Positions 608-62,975 of a stretch of DNA of 64,000 nt are shown one piece after another; position 1 is the stretch's first letter, and each line of letters opens with the position of its first letter. The notes below the pieces were generated by a model. It saw nothing but the letters and a program-made list of their open reading frames with translations. It did not search any database and was not told the origin of the DNA. The DNA comes from Eledone cirrhosa (Eukaryota). The position numbers were made by a program, and so were the translations under genes. The stretch covers positions 28,520,001 to 28,584,000 of the forward strand of contig OZ024751.1 of assembly GCA_964016885.1 (NCBI GenBank), in the 5' to 3' direction.

Positions 608-735
608 AACACATCAAACAATCACATGGGGTAATTTGTAAAATTCACATATATAAGCACATGGAGCAGTGCCCGGATTTACTTGTGCCATCAGATAAAA
701 CGGGTAACTTATACAGGCTTGACCACAAAACATAT
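602..735 (+). pseudogene. Penelope-like element RT N-terminal fragment
   Basis: Translation DLLVPSDKTGNLYRLDHKTY resembles the PLE 'ADK..N.Y.....Y' (DKG-region) motif upstream of the RT core. Short and bounded by microsatellites. Confidence 0.5.
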
Positions 736-5508: not shown

Positions 5509-5864
5509 GTGAAATGAAAATAAAGAAAGAAATAAAAAAAGTAGAGGAGATTATGTAAAATGAACACTACATTAAAGTATGTTATCAGGGTATGAAGAAA
5601 CCTACTCTAATATTTCTACATTTAACTCTTTGGGTATCAAAAACCATCTAATACAAGCAACTGCTCTGCTTCTAAGATATAATATTGCTTCTTTTCAAAT
5701 CATCATTGTTTAATATCTGTTTCGCTACTAGCAAAGCTTGGACATGTCGCTGTCATAGACCGATTGTCCAAGTGAAGAGGCCTAACATATTATGATCCCA
5801 TGCTTGACCGAGAGAATTTTATCGTCACACCTACACATTGGCCTAATTGTGAGGATGTTTGACA

Positions 5865-6100
5865 TATGATCATAATGTTGTCGGTGAGATTTCTATGTTG
5901 TGTTCTTGAACAAAACATTTTATTTCACATTACTCCAGTACACTCAGCTGAGATGAGTACTAGCAGTAGTTGGAGAGTTAAGCCTGCAATAGACCAGCAT
6001 CCTCTCCAGGGAGAGTCTTGTATTCTCAGTTTCTTAACACCAAGGAAACCGGGGATAAAGCACTGCCTTGATGAGTTTTCAGCTTAGAACAAACTTTAAC
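5865..6100 (+). mobile_element. Degenerate CORE-type SINE
   Basis: tgtgttcttgaacaaaacattttatttcacattactccagtacactcagctg matches the S2 core. The 3' part matches 43355-43500. Confidence 0.6.
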
Positions 6101-6109
6101 TTAACACAA

Positions 6110-6485
6110 AGGAAGTTGTAAAGTCTTTCGAATAGCTGAAAAGTCTTCAGAACCCTTTGTGTTTATGTTTATTTGAAAACCTTCCTTCATAATTTTAGTT
6201 AAGAACCTTTGTTAAGTTATGTTCCAATTCACCAACTTAATAATTTAACATGCTATTCAATAATATTCTTACCATTAAAAGTTAAAGTTGTAAAGTAAGC
6301 AAGTGAAACTGTAATGTCTCTGGCATAGTGGAAAAGTCTTCACAAAACTTTGTGCTTACATTTATTTGAAAACCTTCCATCATAACTTTCTTAAAGAACC
6401 TTTGTTAAGTTATAATCCAAAACACCAACTTAATAACTTAAAATGGTATTCAGCTGATTTCTTATCTTTAAAAGTAAAGAGTTAA
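6110..6485. repeat. Two tandem ~195-bp units of a dispersed repeat
   Basis: 6110-6290 and 6305-6480 are mutual copies. Reverse-complement relatives at about 45470-45850. Ends in aaagagTTAA (possible piggyBac-like end). Confidence 0.55.
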
Positions 6486-10079: not shown

Positions 10080-10335
10080 TAAGCAAAGTGATATCTAATT
10101 TGTTGGTAATTCAACAAATATATATATTTATAACAGATTCGAAGCACTCAACAAGTTTTCTGGAGTATAATATCAATGATATTAATAAATGGCAACTATA
10201 TTTATAAAACCATATTTATTCTATTATATATATTTCAAGGGTACCAAAACTTTGGTACGCTCTCATCAGATAAAATACAAAGTTTGTTTTATAAATATTG
10301 ACATAGCCAGAAAGTTTTACCTGGATAGTCATACA
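10080..10335 (-). mobile_element. Family B hammerhead-bearing element in (TA)n
   Basis: Homologous to 62486-62760 and 51243-51402. The 3' end abuts (TA)n. Confidence 0.85.
10217..10277 (-). ncRNA. Minimal type I hammerhead ribozyme
   Basis: Minus strand reads tattttat-CTGATGA-gagcgtaccaaagttttggtaccctt-GAAA-tatata-TA-atagaata: complete core, 8-bp stem I (one G-U), long stem II, short palindromic stem III, AUA cleavage triplet. Confidence 0.85.
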
Positions 10336-10356
10336 GTTTTGAATGTGTGTGTGTGA

Positions 10357-10872: not shown

Positions 10873-11066
10873 TGACTGCCATGACTAAATTATAACCATC
10901 AACATAGTTAAGGTATGTCAGGCATCAAGTTATATTATCTGATGAGGACGTACTGTTGAAATAGCTCCGTATCTCTGAAATATGTATAATAAAATATATT
11001 TGATCACATGAATGTCTATATTTATTAATATTTTGAAGTAATATATATATATATATATATATATAT

Positions 11067-13471: not shown

Positions 13472-13476
<5 letters not shown>

Positions 13477-13559
13477 GCATACACCAGTCCCACAAACTGT
13501 AGAGTGCTTCTTATCCGATATCTGCATTGCTTTATTGTACTACAATAAAACTCACCTCC

Positions 13560-13563
<4 letters not shown>
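13472..13563 (+). mobile_element. Family F short element in (TA)n
   Basis: Reverse-complement copy at 31338-31432, with the 3' end of both copies next to (TA)n. Confidence 0.7.
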
Positions 13564-16599: not shown

Positions 16600-17602
16600 G
16601 TTTATTTTATTTGCCACCAGGGCATCAAAAGTGGGACAAGTACAAAGGGGGGAGTTTACACAAAAAGGCGTCCTCAATAAGGAGGAGGCAATAACAAAAT
16701 ATAAAAATAAAATAAGATATAACAAAAAATAAAATTTTTAACAAAATCCTCAATAGAGAGGAGGCGCCTTGGGGGGTCGCACACACCCCCGAAAAAAGTG
16801 TGCAACCCTTTTCCTCAGGAGCACAGAGAGGGGGTGCTCCCTCGTTCCTTCCTCTTTTCCACCTACAGGCTTATGTAAAGAGAAGGCCCATTCACACGGG
16901 CCATTCTCGCCACTTTCACCCACCTTTCATAAAAACGACTGGGGTGCAGCACCTCTCTCTCCATCCTGATCCTTCTTCCGAAATGATATCGGAAGAAACG
17001 GACCAGTTGTTGGCCAGAGAGAAAGGTGCCTGACCTCAGTCCTTTCAGACGCGTCCACCATACAACCTCTTTCGCCATGGCTATTACGCACAGAAACACC
17101 GCCTCTGCTTCATCTTTGAAGGGGGGAGGCGGCTTGATCATTACAATAGACTCGGTGGTCAACCGGATCGGTCCCACCCTTGACAGCAGTTGTTCGACAT
17201 AGCCCCACAGATCGGCTACGCCCAAGCAGTGTACCAATGCGTGTGCAACGGTTTCCTCGTCGCACACGCATCTGGGACAGATCTTTTTGGCGGGGTCCCT
17301 ACCCGGGCGCCCGTGTCTGTAGAGCCTTTCTCGAACGGGTAAAGCCCCTCGGTAGCACTGCCAGGCCAGGGACTTCTGGAAGTTGTCCATAGGTCCCGGG
17401 CTGAATGTCCTACCGAACAGGCTGGCCAGTTCGTCCTCCTCCATGTCTAGGGCTTCTCCGAGGGCGTCGTCGCACCTGCTGCGTACCAGCCCTCTATAGA
17501 ATGTTGCGGTGGAGTCTCCACTGATAACCGGATCCGCCTGCCAGAGGGCGGTGAGCGCCTGGGCACACTCAGTGTGCCAGGCGCCCAGTTTTCTCGGTCT
17601 TT
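16600..17602 (-). pseudogene. L1/Tx1-clade LINE, 3' end of ORF2 (zf-RVT-like) plus 3'UTR
   Basis: ORF 16863-17444: AWQCYRGALPVRERL...CPRC..DEETVAHALVHC CCHC knuckle. GC-rich, with an aataaa-type 3' terminus. Confidence 0.9.
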
Positions 17603-17616
17603 GCTTTTATATATAT

Positions 17617-21985: not shown

Positions 21986-22139
21986 TACGTTTCAACATAA
22001 ACCTTTATGAATGTCCGGTTACTGATATGGACGGTATGTGGGGGGGGGAGGAGGTATAGAGATAGATAGATAGAGAGAGGGGGGGAGATGAGATAGATAG
22101 AGATAAGAGTGAGAGGGAGAGAGATAGATAGACAGATAT

Positions 22140-22228
<89 letters not shown>

Positions 22229-22442
22229 GAAATAGATAGATAGACAGATAAACGGATAGAATAAGAGAGAGAGAGGGAGTGAGAGAGAGAGAGTGAGACA
22301 GAGAGAGAGAGAGACAGAGAGAGAGAGAGAATGGGTGGGGATTAGCTAACCTTTGTGTGTGTATGTAGGTTAGTGTGACGATAATCCCACCCATATCATT
22401 ATCATCATAATTATAATGATTATCATTATTAATAACATTATC

Positions 22443-23925
22443 GAACGCCAAGGTGGAGTTTCCACCGATCAGATTGCCCGACTGGTCGAGGGCTGTGAGC
22501 GCCTGAAGACATTCCAGTCTCCAAGCGCTCCCTCTCGGTCTTCGCTTGACCCAGGACTGCAGCTCCGTCAAGGAGACGAGCTGGGGAAAGACGCGTCTAG
22601 CAAACGGCGACCACACCTGATCACCGTCGAGGAAGAGGTGTAGATGTCGTAGCCTGAGCGCGTGTCTGCGCATCATCAGCCACGGCATGCCCAGTCCCCC
22701 ACGTAGCGGGTGTGGACAGCAGATGGACCAGATGTCACTGTGCATGGCAGCGATCCAGCCTCTGAAGACGGGTCCAAAGCCAGCCGCCCTCGGGACTGTC
22801 GCCAGATAATGATGGTCGACCCTATCGAAAGCTTTCGACTGATCTAAATTGATCAAGGAGCCATCCGTGTCAGGTTCCCTCTCCACGATGTATCGCATGA
22901 GGTGGAGGTTGTCGTGGATGGATCTGTCTGGAATGATGCATGTCTGTGCCTCTCCCACCAGACCACCGACGACAAGCGCCAACTTCTTTGCTAGCACCTT
23001 GGCCAAAATCTTGAACTCTGTGTTTAACAGAGTTATGGGCCTGAAATTATCTATGTTATCGCCCTCGTTCGAATTCTTTCTCAGCAGCGCCACCGCTCCT
23101 CGGCTCACAGAGCTGAGAATTCTCCCGTTCTGTTGCCAGTTGCAGTAGACGTCCGCCAAGAGGCCTCCGAACAAGTCTGGCATCTGTACGTAAAGTTCAT
23201 AGGGCAGACCACCCAAACTAGGCGATTTACTCCTTGTGCAGCCTGTCATTGCCTCCCGTACTTCAGTGGCTGTTATCGGCTTTTCGCAACACTTCGCCTC
23301 AGTGGCCGAGAGCCGCAGCAGTCCGTCGAGTTAGACACTAAAGTCCATCCCTCGATCCGGCCCGCCGCTGCCCTCGAACAGCTGAGCGAAATGCCGCTGA
23401 AAAGCTTCACACATTTTCCCGGGATCGAGTAGCATGCGCCCGTCGTGGTCCACCAAAGACCGGATCGTGGCTTTGTTGCCACGACGCGCCTCCGCCACTC
23501 GGGCCCATTGAACGGCTTTCGTCCCCCCCCCCCGTGTCTGAGAGCACGCACCCTAGCTCTGACAATGCAGCCTTCGTGCTTTGCATTGAAGAATTGGTCA
23601 AGGGCCAATTTCGCCGCAAGTACGTCGGTCGCGATGTCTTTACTAAGCGCCTCGTCTAATTTTCTAACTAGTTCTCCCTCTGCTCCATTTTTCTCTATTG
23701 CTAAAGCCTTACTAAACCTAATGGACTCTATTCTAATCGCTCTTTTCAGAGCAAACCACCATTTGTTGTTGATGATGGCCCACGTCAACGCCCGCTTAAC
23801 TAATTCGCAAATCCGGTCTCAGTAGACCTTGCCCGCTGTTAATGACGCGTTTAGCTTCCAGTAGCGGGGTCCCTGTCTATGAAGCCTATCTAAGTCAACC
23901 ACACAGATCACGAATTGTGGACAGC
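22443..23925 (-). pseudogene. L1/Tx1-clade LINE ORF2 remnant (EN end, RT, internal deletion)
   Basis: G..YWKLNASL, FRPITLLNTEFKILAKVL, LINLDQSKAFDRVDH, then a jump to GGLGMP. Frameshifted. AWRLECLQALTAL aligns with the 17.55 kb copy. Confidence 0.92.
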
Positions 23926-27563: not shown

Positions 27564-28166
27564 ATGGCTGTGTGATTAAGGTGTTCACTTCACAACATAG
27601 GTGTAGGTATGGCTGTGTGATTAAGGTGTTCACTTCACAACATAGGTGTAGGTATGGCTGTGTAGTTAAGGTGTTCACTTCACAACATAGGTGTAGGTAT
27701 GGCTGTGTGATTAAGGTGTTCACTTCACAACATAGGTGTAGGTATGGCTGTGTGATTAAGGTGTTCACTTCACAACATAGGTGTAAGTATGGTTGTGTGA
27801 TTAAGGTGTTCACTTCACAACATAGGTGTAGGTATGGCTGTGTGATTAAGGTGTTCACTTCACAACATAGGTGTAGGTATGGCTGTGTAGTTAAGGTGTT
27901 CACTTCACAACATAGGTGTAGGTATGGCTGTGTGATTAAGGTGTTCACTTCACAACATAGGTGTAGGTATGGCTGTGTGATTAAGGTGTTCACTTCACAA
28001 CATAGGTGTAAGTATGGTTGTGTGATTAAGGTGTTCACTTCACAACATAGGTGTAGGTATGGCTGTGTGATTAAGGTGTTCACTTCACAACATAGGTGTA
28101 GGTATGGCTGTGTAGTTAAGGTGTTCACATCACAAGATAGGTGTAAGTATGGTTGTGTGATTAAGG
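27564..28166. repeat. 45-bp minisatellite, 13 full copies plus a partial, with 5-unit higher-order period
   Basis: ggctgtgtgattaaggtgttcacttcacaacataggtgtaggtat every 45 bp from 27566. Confidence 0.95.
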
Positions 28167-28507
28167 TTGTGACAATTGTCACATACCAAGCTTCAGCAAA
28201 TACAGGAGGAAATAAACATACAGTATATTATTAAACATACAATATGTACATTTATATGTATTTCGCTGTGGGAGCACCAATACAAATATATATATACATA
28301 TATATATATATTCGTGTGGCCACTGTCATCATTGAAATATGTATCACAGCATTACCAATAAAGGACTTTAACATCTGAAACTACTTCGCATTTTCTCATA
28401 TATATATGTGTGTGCAAAAATTGAACGCAACAACAATGCAAAATGACACAATACAATAAAGAAATATATTAGTTTAATGCTTCATATGGCAGGAAAGTAG
28501 GAAAAGA

Positions 28508-40879: not shown

Positions 40880-41779
40880 AGTACATTGAAACCCTCATTT
40901 ATTTCTTCACAACCGTGAACCTAATAAGACTTTGTCTTTTTGCATCTCTGTTCTCTGAATTTGTCTTCGATATTCTTGAACTATACACACACATATATAT
41001 ATATATATATGTGTGTATATATTTATATATACATATATGTGTGTGTGTATATATATGTGTCTGTGTGTGTATCTTTATTTATATGTATATATATGTGTCT
41101 GTGTGTGTATCTTTATATATATATATATATATATTAATCATGTATATGTACGTGTGTGTGGTGTGCGTGTATGCGTCTGCATGTCTGCGTTTCTGCGTGT
41201 GTGCATGTGCATGTCTTGGAATCTGGTTCAATTAAATGGGAAAATATTTCTTCCAAGAATCCAGGAAGTTACTCTCTAGAAGTCATTGAGTGAGAGAAGT
41301 AATTAGAAAAGTGGAGAAAAAACACTCAAAAGAACTTTTCCAGAGAATCTCTTATTATAAGACAAGGAACTATTTCCATACGTAAATTTATTCTTTATCT
41401 TCATTTTCCTACTGTCTAGTTTTGTAGCTGTTCTCTTTTACATTATCAGGATTGCTAAAATCGGTAGAGCACCAGATGAAATTGTCATATGCCATTTAAA
41501 CATGGCTCTTTACATTCTGCTATCTAGCTCTAGCAAGGTCAACTTCGAGTTTGTTCTTCGTTGTTTCTAGGTCAATGGAATAAAGTACCAGTCATGTACT
41601 GAGATCAAGTCACTAACTCCCTTGGCCCTTAATTTATATCCTTGTGCCCTTGTTAGAAATAAGAATAAATTTTAAATATATTTATTCAAAAAAGGAGAAA
41701 CAAAACTCAATAGCTGGAAAATACATATATATATATATAAGCCACTTGAAATATATATAATAGAATAAATATGGTTTTA

Positions 41780-48911: not shown

Positions 48912-49127
48912 ATGTGTGTGTAGTTTTAGTGTCATGTTCAAGAGCCTGTTTATTTTTACAATATCTGTAATAGTTGAAGTCCAGTGACATGGAATGTTTA
49001 ATTGATGAAAGGAGGAGGAGGAGGAGAAGAAGGAGGAGGGTGACAAATAAATTGAAATAACTGATAGATGCTGTTCAAGTGGGTTAGTTAGATTTATCAT
49101 ACCACAGAATGAAAATATATGGATGAC

Positions 49128-49159
<32 letters not shown>

Positions 49160-49161
<2 letters not shown>

Positions 49162-51035
49162 GACCTATCACATGTCTGTCCGTAATGTGGAAACTGTTAA
49201 CAAGCATTGTGTCTGAGGAAATCTACTATCACCTCCACATAAACAACTTGTTACCGGACGAACAGAAAGGATGCCAAAAGAAGTCCCGTGGTACAAAGGA
49301 CCAGTTACTTATTGATAAGATGGTAATGAGGAATTGCAGGAGACACACTGGTCTTGCCATGGGATGGATAGACTACAAAAAGGCATTCGACATGGTACCT
49401 CATTCTTGGATAACCAAAAGCCTAGAGATCTTCAGGGTGGCAGATAACATCAGACAGTTGTTGGGCAAAAGTATGAAATCCTGGAAAACAGAGTTAACGT
49501 CGGGCGGAGAATCCTTGGGAGGCGTGAAGATCAAGAGAGGTATCTTCCAGGGAGATAGTTTGTCCCCTCTGTTGTTTGTCCTTGCCCTGATCCCCCTGAC
49601 CATTATACTGCGAAAAGTGAGAGCAGGATACAAGTTGAGAAAGGGAGAGCTTACCATCAATCACCTCCTCTTCATGGATGATCTTAAGCTCTTCGGGAAG
49701 AGTGAGAAGGAGTTGGATGTACTTGTTGACACTGTCCGTATTTTCAGCAATGATATATGTATGGAATTTGGTATTAGTAAGTGTGGAGTCCTTGTGTGAA
49801 GAGGGGTAAATTGAGCAGAAGTAACGGAATCCAGGTACCAACAGGTGAGATGATAAAGGAAATTGATACTGAAGAAGGATACAAATATTTAGGTGTTCTG
49901 GAGGCTGATGACATCAAGAACAAAAAAATGAAAGAATTGATAAGATCTGAATACATTTGGAGAGTAAGGGGCGTATTGAAGTCACATCTGAACAGTAGGA
50001 ATGTCATAAGTGCAGTAAATTCCCGAGATGTGTCTATTATTAGGTACAGTGCGGGAATTCTGAGATGGAATGTTGTTGAACAAAAAGAAATGGATAGAAT
50101 GACTAGGAAGCTATTGACTATCTACAACATGTTCCACAAGAGGAGTGATGCTCAGAATTGTACTGAAGGGGATGTCCAAGGAGGAAATAACAACAACAAG
50201 AAAGAGCAACCTTCATGAAAAATCCCTTCATAGTACCTTCTTTGAGAAAACTGAATTTAGAGATCCACAGACATGGAACTGGTTGAAAAGAGGAGACCTT
50301 AAAAAGGCTACAGAAGGAATGCTAATGGCTGCGCAAGAGCAGGCCCTCAAAACGAAGTGGCTGAAACACCAAGGAGGAGGCTAGCCCACTGTGTAGGATC
50401 TGTGGAGAGAAAGAGGAGACTGTGGCTCACATTGTTTCCGAGTGTAAACACCTAGCCCAGATTCAATATAAAGGCTGGAGACATGATGTGATGGGCAGGG
50501 TGATCCACTGGCATCTATGCAAAGTAAACAATTTACTACATTCTGAGAAGTGGTATGAGCATAAACCAGAGTCGGTGATAGAAAACGATCAGGTGAAGGT
50601 GCTGTGGGATTTTAGGATACAGATGGACAAAAAACTGGAACACAATAGACCTGACCTGGTGGTTTTGGACATGGGAAAAAGATCGTGCCTGATTGTGGAT
50701 GTGGCCTGCCCATTCGACACAAGAGTGCAAGAGAAGGAGAGGGAGAAAATTAACCGATACCAGGACTTAAAGTGGGAGGTAAAAAGGATTTGGAACTGCC
50801 ATGAGGTCAAAGTGGTCCCGATTGTCATAGGCGCACTAGGTACTATCTCAAAGAGTTTCCAAGGATGGTTAAAGAAGATTAGTCCAGCCCCGCTTTTTGG
50901 AACACTTCAAAAGGCATGCTTGCTGGGAACAGCAAGAACCCTCCGATATGTCCTGAATATCTGAGGCTGCAGGTAGTGGCTTGATATTCATTTCAATAAA
51001 CTTTCCAGTTAAATAACATCAATGACTGAGACTCA
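49160..51035 (+). pseudogene. R4/Dong-clade non-LTR retrotransposon, 5'-truncated (RT, CCHC, REL endonuclease)
   Basis: [37 protein letters not shown]; CRICGEKEETVAHIVSEC; RHD; RPDLVV..IVDVACPFD..EKINRYQDL. Frameshifts and stops present. (AAT)n flanks. Confidence 0.93.
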
Positions 51036-51199: not shown

Positions 51200-51402
51200 A
51201 CACAAAGTGTGTTTTATAAATTTTTGGTGTTTTATAAATTTTTGAAATATATATAATAGAATAAATATGGTTTTATAAATATAGTTTCCATTTATTTAAT
51301 ATCATTGTATATTATACTCCAGAAAGCTTGTTGAGTGCTCTGAATCAGTTATAAACATTTATATTTGTTGAATTACCAACAAATTGAATATCCCTTCTGC
51401 TT
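51200..51402 (+). mobile_element. Family B element, plus strand, keeping only the 3' half of the hammerhead
   Basis: GAAA-tatata-TA-atagaata at 51244 through ...cccttctgctt(AT)n, preceded by a short inverted upstream piece. Confidence 0.8.
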
Positions 51403-51939: not shown

Positions 51940-54567
51940 AATCGTCTCGTATTTAAACTCTGATTACTGTTATAAGTTCGTTTTATAGGTTTAGATTAAA
52001 AAAAAAAATAACCTTCTCGTTAACTTCCCCATATCCCGCCCCCACTCGCCACCATTATTAGATGGTCCAATCATAATTCAGCGGCTTATACGTCTCTCTT
52101 ACCAATCTCTTACACAAAACCACCGTCTCGGCTATTCACTCCTTAAGTTTAAACCTGGTTGCCTTTGATATGCTAGATGGACTGTGGGATTCTGGAGAGG
52201 ACGAAGAATCTGGACACTCAATTGACAATGTCAGAGATAAAGATAAATTCACCTCATGTGGCCGGACGAAAATGCAAGGATTCCTCTTTATTTCAGACGC
52301 GGATGGCAAACATAACCCCATCTCCCTCACCCCTCCCTACACCTCCAACCCATTCCTTCCACCCATCAAACGAAATCCAAAACTTCAGAGTTGGTACCAT
52401 GAATGTAAGCACTTTAAAAGATCGCTCTAACGAGATTGTAGAGATGCCTCAACATAAGGAAGTTGATGCTTGTTGCGTCCAAGAGACTAGGTGGAGGGGC
52501 GGGCCTGCTAGATTCATTGTGGGTAAAATATGATGCTATAAACTTTTCTGGGTGGGAAATGAAAATGGGCTGGGTGGAGTAGGAATTATGTTAGCAGAAA
52601 AATGGGTAGATAAGGTAATCGTCGTAAATAGAGTGAACGACAGAATAATCAAAATAAGACTTGTCCTAAATAGAACTACTGTGACAATAATATTCGCTTA
52701 CGCACCCCAACCTGGACTGCCTGGCGTTATAAAAAACAGATTCTATGAGTCACTAATGCTCACTACCTCCCAAATAACCAACAGTGACTACATAATTGTT
52801 GCTGGCGACCTAAATGGTCCCGTTGGACAACATAGTTATGGCTGTGATGGAATCCATGGAGGCTACGGGTTTGGTACCAGAAATGAGGAAGGCTTCAGAA
52901 TTCTGGAATTCTGTGACGCAAATAACCTAACTATCTGCAACACAAACTTCAAAAAACGAGAAAATCACTTGATCACCTGTAGATCAGGGGAACACGCCAG
53001 TCAGATAGATTATATCCTTACCAGAAGACATGACAAAGTGTCGGTTGTAAACACTAAATCCCTCCCCCGCGAAAAATGCACCTCCCAACATAGCCTAGTA
53101 GTTAGTGACCTCATAGTCAGGACGAGACGTACTCGACAACAGAGGAAGACTACCCTGAGAAGAAGAATATGGAAGTTAAAGGACCCCACAGCCAGTAACA
53201 AATTTAAAAGTGAGAGCCATACAAGCCATGTATAAAGAAACAGTCAGCAAGGTTAGAATTAACAACAAATATAGTGAAGAATTTAGCGTAAAAGTCGGTG
53301 TTCATCAGGGCTGTCCTTAGCCCCCTCCTATTTATTATTGCCCTTCAGGCTATAACAGAGGAGTTCAAGACCGGCTGCCCATGGGAACTTCTATACGCAG
53401 ATGATCTAACGGTCATAGCTGAATCAATGGCTGAACTAGAGAAGAAATTCCAAACTTGAAAACATGGCCTAGAAGCAAAAGGCCTTAAAATTAACTTGTC
53501 TAAGACTAAAGTTCTAGTATGTAGGAAGGAAAATAGGGCACTGGTCCCCTCTGGGAAATGGCTATGCTCAGTGTGTAGGAAAGGAGTAGGCAGAAACTCC
53601 ATTTTATGTCCCAAATGCAAAGTATGGTGCATAAAAGATGTAGTGGGATCACAGGTAAACTAACTAAGAACAAAGATTTTATATGTGGCCGGTGCTCAGG
53701 TGCAATAAGTAGTAGCAAGTTCAGAGAGCTTATACCACTATTGGCCGCTAAAGGTTTCTCCCTAAAAATGAAAGGCAGACTGTATGATGCCTGCATACGA
53801 ACAGCAATGTTACATGGGAATGAGACATTGGCATTGTGTGCAGAGGATCTGCGCAGACTGGAGAGGAACAAAGCTTGCATGCTCTGTTGGATGTGTAATA
53901 GTAATATACGTGAACGGCAAAGCATAAATGAACTAAGTGAGAAATTAGGAATATGAGGGATCAGATGCTGTTTACTCGAGAGAAGACTACATTGGTATGG
54001 TCACGTGATGCGCATGAAAGATAACAGCTGTATAAAAAAGTGCAGGCCGATCAAAATAGATGGAAGCTATGGAGTAGGCAGACCCAGAAAAACCTGGGAC
54101 GATTTGATAAATTCCGACCATAGACACTTACACCTCTCCAAGACAATGTCACTGGACCGAGATCTTTGGCACTGCGCAGTAATACAGAAGACCCGCGTTG
54201 CCTAAGTACAAAGCAAAACCTAGTCAGTAGGCACCTCCTAACCAAAAATACACCCGCCATCCCACTACCCCCCCCCCCTGTAAAGATATGTTGGTGCCAC
54301 AACATCGAGTCCGAAATAAATGAGGTCGTGTAGGTGTCACGACAAAAAAAAAAACACACAGTCCACGCTGTAATGTGGCCGTGTAGGTAACACGGTAAAA
54401 ACCTCCCAGTCCACACTGTAAACGTGGTTGGTGTTAGGAAGGGCATCCACCCATAGAAAACCCACCAGACAGTCCTGAGCAAGACAACCAATCTTGCCTC
54501 ACATGGGACAATTCCCATCTAAACCCATGCTAGCATGGAAGATAGACGTTAAACGATGATAATGATA
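51940..54567 (+). pseudogene. RTE-clade LINE, long copy with internal deletions
   Basis: APE endonuclease (VGTMNV, CVQETRW, AYAPQ, AGDLNG, QIDYIL, SQHSLV), RT tail (GVHQG..LSPLLF, LLYADDL), Cys-rich CSVC..CPKC..CSG..CGRC, WYGHVMRM..GRPRKTW, and a 3'UTR ending in a (GAT)n-like tail. The 5' boundary is approximate. Confidence 0.92.
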
Positions 54568-62431: not shown

Positions 62432-62480
<49 letters not shown>

Positions 62481-62624
62481 TACATAAGCAGAAGGGATAT
62501 TCAATTTGTTGGTAATTCAACAAATATAAATGTTTATAACTGATTCAGAGCACTCAACGGATTTTCTGGAGTATAATATTCAATGATATTGAATAAATGG
62601 AAACTATATTTATAAAACCATATT

Positions 62625-62685
62625 TATTCTATTATATATATTTCAAGGGTTCCAAAATTTTGGTACGCTCTCATCAGATAAAATA
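62625..62685 (-). ncRNA. Minimal type I hammerhead ribozyme
   Basis: tattttat-CTGATGA-gagcgtaccaaaattttggaaccctt-GAAA-tatata-TA-atagaata on the minus strand. Confidence 0.82.
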
Positions 62686-62850
62686 CGAAGTGTGTTTTAT
62701 AAATTTTGACATAACCAAGGAAAATATACCTGAACAGTTCAAGTTTTCCTTAGATAGTCATCTTTCCTTAGATAGTCACTATCTAAGGAAAACTTGAACC
62801 TTTAAGGTATATTTTCCTTGGTTATGTCAAAATTTATAAAACACACTTCG

Positions 62851-62911
62851 TATTTTATCTGATGAGAGCGTTCCAAAATTTTGGAACCCTTGAAATGTAT
62901 ATAATAGAATA
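62851..62911 (+). ncRNA. Minimal type I hammerhead ribozyme
   Basis: tattttat-CTGATGA-gagcgttccaaaattttggaaccctt-GAAA-tgtata-TA-atagaata on the plus strand. Confidence 0.85.
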
Positions 62912-62975
62912 AATATGGTTTTATAAATATAGTTTCCATTTATTTAATATCATTGTACATATACATATATATATT

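Follow-up and report, generated by a model that had tools for sequence, protein, structure and literature searches.

Two type-I hammerhead motifs lie in one palindromic insertion at positions 62486–62955 of the window, the 64,000-nt stretch of Eledone cirrhosa contig OZ024751.1 analysed here. As the sequence-only reading had proposed, they stand back to back; they point outward from a shared centre, with C3 at 62859 (plus strand) and 62677 (minus strand), and (TA)n adjoins both outer ends of the insertion. The left target tract spans 62432–62485; the right tract (62956–62974) is degenerate and continues into (GTA)n. Between them, a long arm on the minus strand (62486–62758) is a 273-nt pLTR copy running from an Inr-like start at 62758 to a long 3′ end at 62486, and a short arm on the plus strand (62778–62955) is a pLTR copy running from the same Inr-like start to a short 3′ end. 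The tail that separates the short from the long 3′ end (86–95 nt; minus strand, 62486–62580) is missing from the short arm, and its boundary near 62580 is blurred by TA-like bases. The arms meet at a junction (62759–62777) made of a 4-nt spacer and 14 nt that repeat the end of the left arm; this repeat and the right arm's start form a perfect small palindrome.

Each motif contains all parts of a hammerhead. Hammerhead 1 (62625–62685, minus strand) pairs 62685–62678 with 62632–62625 in stem I, followed by CUGAUGA at 62677–62671, stem II at 62670–62645 with one A.A mismatch and GAAA at 62644–62641, with a predicted cut after 62633. Hammerhead 2 (62851–62911, plus strand) pairs 62851–62858 with 62904–62911 in stem I and carries CUGAUGA at 62859–62865, stem II at 62866–62891 and GAAA at 62892–62895. 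Its predicted cut, after 62903, coincides with the site anticipated earlier. The claimed 8-bp stem I was found, with one U-G pair. A 2-bp stem III with a palindromic loop holds overall, but the right arm reads AUGUAUAU, an imperfect palindrome.

The two arms are 95.2% identical over 188 nt, and the long arm is 94–96% identical to the 39 other best copies in the genome. One contig from a public sequencing run, which may derive from the assembly's own sample, bridges the junction (62702–62830) with zero differences; about 99.6% of the contig depth in that run shows the family base at 62651.

The family is represented elsewhere in the window, mostly by broken copies. Only two of the five loci listed by the sequence-only reading (2221, 10080, 41745, 51200 and 62486) have a complete core, namely 10080 and 62486. 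The former (10081–10349, minus strand; C3 at 10269) has its long end on (TA)n and its 5′ end at the same ACTATC motif. A fourth complete motif, overlooked earlier, has C3 at 10939 on the plus strand and a predicted cut after 10988; it lies in a sister-subfamily copy (10930–11044; 77% to L011, E 1e-18) that has (TA)n tracts on both sides and is 600 bp away from the 10080 copy. The remaining loci are an older-subfamily fold-back of one long and one short arm, whose truncation lies 3′ of the ribozyme and leaves no core (2221–2385); a 4-nt stub resembling an inverted long end plus a GAAA half that enters an N gap (41741–41779, plus strand); and a 5′-rearranged copy with only the GAAA half and its long end on (TA)n (51202–51402, plus strand). 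A short piece between (TA)n tracts at 13475–13562 (plus strand) resembles the tail and long end at low identity and is possibly a further sister family.

Other repeats share the window. Pieces of non-LTR retrotransposon ORF2 at 16866–17606 and 22008–23818 (minus strand; RVT_1 E 1e-10, zf-RVT) are presumably L1/Tx1-like. Further non-LTR retrotransposon fragments lie on the plus strand at 49113–50961 and 52534–53232 (RVT_1 E 1e-22; Exo_endo_phos_2), and a 45-bp minisatellite at 27564–28167 comprises 13.4 copies with 95% matches. Microsatellites dominated the repeat search of the window.

Conservation of the hammerhead motif

A conserved core and co-varying helices indicate that the hammerhead motif is under selection in the source lineages. 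A descriptor scan, one of two checks suggested from the sequence, recovered three complete motifs in the window (62859 plus, 62677 minus and 10269 minus) and none in any of 30 dinucleotide shuffles. The other check, Rfam, reported no hammerhead at E ≤ 10: all 26 rows for 62480–62970 held no hammerhead family, only miRNA-like hairpin noise, and hammerhead was absent among the best 150 of 367 rows for the whole window. We compared 11 core positions (C3–A9, G12–A15.1, U16.1 and H17) across 75 arms picked without regard to the core. Deviation there was 17 of 673 cells (2.5%), against 344 of 2,676 (12.9%) upstream, 10.3% in stem II, 7.1% downstream and 288 of 2,711 (10.6%) in the tail. The core is better kept than its flanks (2.5% versus 7–13%), the reverse of the pattern that had been named as evidence against a ribozyme. 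The core pattern was matched by 126 of 180 arms; the other 54 comprise 16 that span the core with mutations and 38 that are truncated.

The helices are paired far more often than slid controls. Across 17 hand-picked representatives of four subfamilies, 94.6% of helix cells are paired, compared with 39–52% in slid controls, and 7 of 18 pairs have changed on both sides, figures inflated by relatedness and by the chosen structure. At pair 10.1–11.1 these representatives have A-U (10), G.U (4) or another combination (3). The window motif has G.U; the family shows A-U, U.U or G.U, and the canonical G10.1–C11.1 pair was not seen. Stem II covariation stands between subfamilies, but the GUUCC/GGAAC variant cited for it occurs in just 1 of 126 core-bearing arms, the right arm of the 62486–62955 insertion; it is private to that arm and no evidence of selection. 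The left arm has GUACC/GGAAC, with an A.A mismatch. The variant probably arose by one substitution common to both arms plus local palindrome correction. Core conservation and helix covariation nonetheless bear out a minimal type-I hammerhead of the kind found in Penelope-like elements (PLEs).

The parent element

The arms belong to a coding element. They had been described as a non-coding family of about 300 bp, yet the arm sequence runs 5′ into a 3′ UTR of 1.0–1.4 kb and an ORF. Nor do they form an independent non-autonomous or retrozyme-like family: the arm is a truncated pLTR whose autonomous parent is present in this genome. The suggested search for a long copy with a PLE RT/GIY-YIG ORF yielded an RT ORF with a putative GIY-YIG domain, the arm lying 1.0–1.4 kb downstream of it. 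We inspected 20 ORF loci (9 kb each), chosen by high score or long open frames from at least 116 family-protein matches in the genome. The hammerhead end lay downstream of the ORF in sense at 14 loci and was present in any orientation at 18.

The element encodes a single ORF, whose longest frame is 741 aa, with an RT followed by a C-terminal VVY..YVG (GIY-YIG-like) domain. The protein has RWR or RWC in the RWK column of its homologues, near the N-terminus, a DKT motif and a CxCx5C linker, and lacks CCHH. In the endonuclease region, CxxC and CxH flank the catalytic E and N, and the R, H, E, N pattern aligns with that of the homologues and, by eye, with published Hydra endonucleases. A model of the RT built from a 20-sequence alignment reached pLDDT 84, and its best structural match in the PDB was TERT (E 4e-10). 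Pfam reported neither an RT nor a GIY-YIG domain in four ORF pieces or three full-length homologues, and a PDB sequence search with the ORF returned nothing above threshold, so the putative endonuclease is recognised from motifs only. Public databases hold 126 homologues with identity up to 49%, two of them from Argonauta. The pLTRs form partial tandems at seven loci (L068, L070, L075, L077, L078, L081 and L082).

The element is an autonomous PLE, likely of the Hydra clade. Diagnostics of that clade are a C-terminal endonuclease, DKT, an RWK-like motif, CxCx5C and no CCHH (Craig et al. 2021, PMC8557442). The same source describes a GIY-YIG domain after the RT, with CxxC and CxH next to the catalytic E and N residues, and a (TA)n target plus a sense hammerhead in nearly all Hydra families; this hammerhead lies near the 3′ end, its stem III is palindromic, and U.U is frequent at 10.1–11.1. 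Our family, whose endonuclease is matched by motif, resembles these elements in each respect, including its (TA)n target and its sense hammerhead near the 3′ end. It differs in having a longer unit (3.9 kb; 3,874 nt from hammerhead to hammerhead at L081, versus <3 kb stated for the clade), a 1.0–1.4-kb 3′ UTR, clear pLTRs, at least 5,000 copies and a longer stem II with an internal C.C mismatch. By eye, both protein and hammerhead differ from those of Hydra-1_Obim of Octopus bimaculoides, given as 2,507 bp with 'no pLTR'. A Naiad identity, our first guess, was discarded: the endonuclease is C-terminal here, and Naiads lack canonical hammerheads.

On motif grounds the element is a new family of a known clade. 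Our literature search found no published account of it; the repeat libraries (Repbase, Dfam, octopus) were outside that search, and the family may be catalogued there. The main text of a paper on O. vulgaris repeats (PMC13282606) mentions neither Hydra nor ribozymes.

Other PLE sequences lie close to family copies. Hydra-type ORFs 30–50% identical to that of the family occur a few kb away (L077 2–1675, minus strand; L067 7248–8881; L070 1205–2265), so the genome holds several Hydra families. Pieces of another type of PLE ORF, which we take to be Neptune-like, lie beside family copies at L069 2489–3580 (plus strand) and L080 429–2301 (minus strand), with a GIY-YIG Pfam match (E 1e-6) and a DKG motif in L080. 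The endonuclease region of the L061 copy is split by an unrelated stretch of some 430 nt (about 5740–6170). Within the window, a short coding piece next to (TA)n at 660–735 (plus strand) contains SDKTGNLY, resembling the Hydra-type DKT region; it was not among the tblastn matches of the family protein.

3′ ends, targets and paired arms

The family is abundant and shows a preference for (TA)n. An exact 34-mer matched the genome 5,112 times and its control 0 times; copies have diverged by several per cent, so we infer that the true copy number is higher. Screening the 3.0-Gb genome with the arm as query produced 3,545 first-look candidates, of which 40 were scored. In the least biased sample, TATATA or ATATAT lay within 4 nt of the 3′ end in 27 of 37 arms with defined ends, against 8.3% of random positions, in agreement with the proposed targeting of TA microsatellites.

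Arms end at two fixed 3′ sites, 86–95 nt apart, and paired arms usually combine one of each. Among the first 100 matches of the 34-mer, 24 form 12 minus/plus head-to-head pairs within 2 kb, with 0 same-strand and 0 tail-to-tail pairs within that distance; the first 100 matches of a sequence spanning the cut site include 1 same-strand pair. Of 47 head-to-head pairs, 40 join a long to a short arm, 1 is long/long, 0 are short/short and 6 have another end; many were ranked for a full long arm, so that the partner's class is the informative part. The inversion is the PLE-type structure that had been invoked, and the tail is one-sided. All 19 mapped fold-back junctions are different, and therefore the palindrome is remade at each insertion and the fold-back is no replicating unit. 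Most copies have a single arm, and in many fold-backs one core or both are absent. After the long end comes TATATA in 1,873 copies and, in 13, a fixed 7-nt junction that leads into the 5′ start of the element; 10 of these 13 reach the ATG 41–46 nt further on. In partial tandems the hammerhead end passes through this junction to the start codon of the ORF.

At 62486–62955, rare variants are common to both arms, which likely derive from one template. A single template is not evident across the family: among 32 pairs of arms, just 9 had the partner as closest match, and the arms of one pair (L127) apparently resemble two different copies.

The 5′ boundary and the cut site

The 5′ ends of arms cluster 81 nt before C3, at a motif of the TCACT type that resembles an Inr. 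Both arms at 62486–62955 and the 10080 copy begin at the same base of this motif. Among 30 arms selected just downstream of it, 16 stop within about 15 nt, 13 read through for more than 60 nt and 1 falls between. In the 34-mer sample, whose loci partly overlap with these, 14 of the 23 arms reaching the motif stop there, and 0 of 30 ends fall at −98 to −323. Judged from DNA ends, the motif is likely the RNA start. TCACT is termed Inr-like in PMC3846280, and a promoter internal to the pLTR is described for Drosophila Penelope (PMC2377424).

Two other readings of this boundary were set aside. An extra G accompanies exact stops in 10 of 25 cases overall, falling to 4 of 16 once loci ranked by a query containing that base are removed, which leaves a cap-derived G unsupported. 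A splice acceptor is contradicted by arms that keep the bases upstream of the AG and by the lack of a common upstream exon. About 50 nt upstream of the boundary, ATTTGCAT, presumably an octamer motif, is conserved in five A-type references (L061, L062, L065, L067 and L074), and the genome has 590 matches to a 20-mer that covers most of it; it is a possible promoter element.

Ends at the predicted cut site are rare. Copies intact across it number 5,245, against 36 with (TA)6 before it, and 4 of 10 inspected among the latter are true 5′ ends. Since such ends are so few, the templates were likely uncut; more broadly, the copied RNAs were likely uncut or re-ligated.

Predicted folding of the fold-back

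Folding predictions indicate that the palindrome blocks both ribozymes rather than activating them. In the plus-strand transcript of the fold-back, the predicted hairpin reaches −280 kcal/mol, compared with −196 kcal/mol when the hammerhead is forced, and the probability of hammerhead pairs is 0. Transcription of either strand reaches the antisense arm first, and transcripts of 62486–62955 in either direction are predicted to form a long hairpin without the hammerhead helix. With both motifs predicted to be buried in a hairpin of about 190 bp, this copy probably either has no activity or yields dsRNA. The cleavage as a dimer suggested earlier does not apply at this locus, where ribozymes on opposite strands cannot make a same-sense dimer.

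Strong activity is disfavoured even apart from the hairpin, because the G10.1–C11.1 pair is missing and the AU-rich stem I is weak in its natural context. In the absence of the inverted arm, stem I probability ranges from 0 to 0.35 depending on context, and the hammerhead helices are weak. Among similar minimal motifs, those treated in PMC4209133 cleave weakly and as dimers only, and one described in PMC11167929 cleaves only with the element's protein.

Discussion

We are confident that 62486–62955 is a doubly 5′-truncated insertion of an autonomous PLE, likely of the Hydra clade, that placed two hammerhead-bearing 3′ ends head to head in a TA repeat, likely in one event. The pLTR would drive an RNA starting at the Inr-like motif 81 nt before the core, and the element's GIY-YIG domain would nick both strands of a (TA)n tract. 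RT would then start at the distal internal site from one nick and at the proximal site from the other; both cDNAs would run off the 5′ end of the RNA, and self-priming or microhomology would link them into a long arm and a short arm between two (TA)n tracts. Such two-site priming on both strands explains the long/short rule most simply. In vitro, the protein of an anole PLE nicks AT-rich DNA on both strands and extends both (Frangieh et al. 2024, PMC11167929); its RT starts at two internal sites bracketing the tail, and the hammerhead is dispensable and protein-assisted. Selection would keep the ribozyme in source elements, where it would likely process tandem transcripts as a same-sense dimer or with help from protein.

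The insertions closely resemble those of canonical PLEs. PLE insertions carry head-to-head inverted copies, a one-sided tail of 30–40 bp and palindromes at the junction (PMC3846280). Across this and two further accounts (PMC8557442, PMC11167929), the likeness extends from the inversion, junction palindrome and one-arm tail to two discrete 3′ ends and an intact hammerhead in inserted copies. The tail is longer in our family (86–95 nt versus the published 30–40), and the hammerhead lies about 190 nt upstream of the ATG, whereas it overlaps the ATG in canonical PLE units. Within the element, target-like TA bases follow both 3′ ends, whereas the start sites of the anole PAc are described as lacking homology with the DNA that is cut. 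The motif itself matches the minimal type-I hammerheads of metazoan PLEs (PMC4209133) in its core, long stem II and palindromic stem III suited to dimers, and in occurring as many single motifs and as opposite-strand pairs; it differs in its AU-rich 8-bp stem I (theirs has 4–5 bp) and in lacking G10.1–C11.1. Non-LTR retrozymes (PMC7229834; bioRxiv 10.64898/2026.07.22.740005) likewise combine a type-I hammerhead, a unit of a few hundred bases and a PLE link. Our family is inverted rather than direct, forms no short-unit tandem arrays and sits within an ORF-bearing element. Tandem arrays of 170–400-nt units are given as the retrozyme hallmark, and we rejected a retrozyme identity, with 0 same-strand pairs within 2 kb among the first 100 34-mer matches.

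Short solo pLTR copies could instead be transcribed from their internal promoter and mobilised in trans, as a SINE-like non-autonomous offshoot of a Hydra element. We regard this as improbable. Units of 178–273 nt are the commonest product, more than half of the arms extending as far as the Inr-like motif have their 5′ end at it, and an internal pLTR promoter has a precedent in Drosophila Penelope (PMC2377424). The same units would, however, result if reverse transcription of a full-length RNA were primed within its 5′ pLTR; short copies fall within the same subfamilies as ORF-linked ones and have lost the conserved octamer-like motif upstream, and tandem arrays number 0 among the first 100 34-mer matches. 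This alternative is compatible with the main reading of the origin of the insertion. A circular template is less probable still. Here two same-sense hammerheads would be cleaved and ligated for rolling-circle copying, a model proposed in PMC4209133, and the 5′ cluster would be an RT pause site. It would account for the fixed 7-nt end-to-start junction and for insertions intact across the cut site, but a circle has no 5′ end, yet arms from at least two subfamilies stop at a single base of the Inr-like motif (16 exact stops against 2 slightly longer arms outside the biased set), and unprocessed RNA is the main in-vitro substrate of the anole PLE (PMC11167929).

Readings that give the palindrome itself a role fare much worse. 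A selected two-ribozyme device that cuts transcripts of either strand might be suspected from the two intact cores at 62486–62955 and the frequency of head-to-head pairs. It is very unlikely given that the antisense arm comes first on either strand, that the hairpin outcompetes the forced hammerhead by the energies above, that many fold-backs lack one or both cores, and that both motifs here carry private helix changes. Least probable of all, and in our view negligible, is a TIR or fold-back DNA transposon (MITE) with an incidental hammerhead look. A long inverted repeat at TA-rich sites would suit it, but the termini are unlike (long versus short), the centre differs in 19 of 19 mapped fold-backs, most copies are single-armed and the core is conserved with covariation; the RT-encoding parent refutes it.

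The back-to-back arrangement of ribozymes is already known, as opposite-strand hammerhead pairs 100–700 bp apart have been reported (Cervera and De la Pena 2014, PMC4209133), and it is probably non-functional. What seems particular to this family is its long tail, long 3′ UTR, high copy number and sharp 5′ boundary. On a speculative view that we consider improbable, it would also be a fossil record in which the PLE cycle can be read with unusual ease, its thousands of insertions marking a sharp RNA start, two TA-like RT start sites 86–95 nt apart, each serving one target strand, and an uncut hammerhead. If its short units also re-amplify from a promoter of their own, they would make up a pLTR-derived, ribozyme-bearing Hydra SINE whose fold-backs act as built-in dsRNA silencers.

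The role of the PLE hammerhead and the formation of head-to-head copies have been tested in vitro in one element only. The present family supplies genome-scale counts of the two 3′ ends, the one-long/one-short rule, the 5′ boundary and the few ends at the cut site, and these end counts fit the two-site priming model of 2024. The family also shows that a Hydra-type family, from a clade described from few families, can reach thousands of copies.
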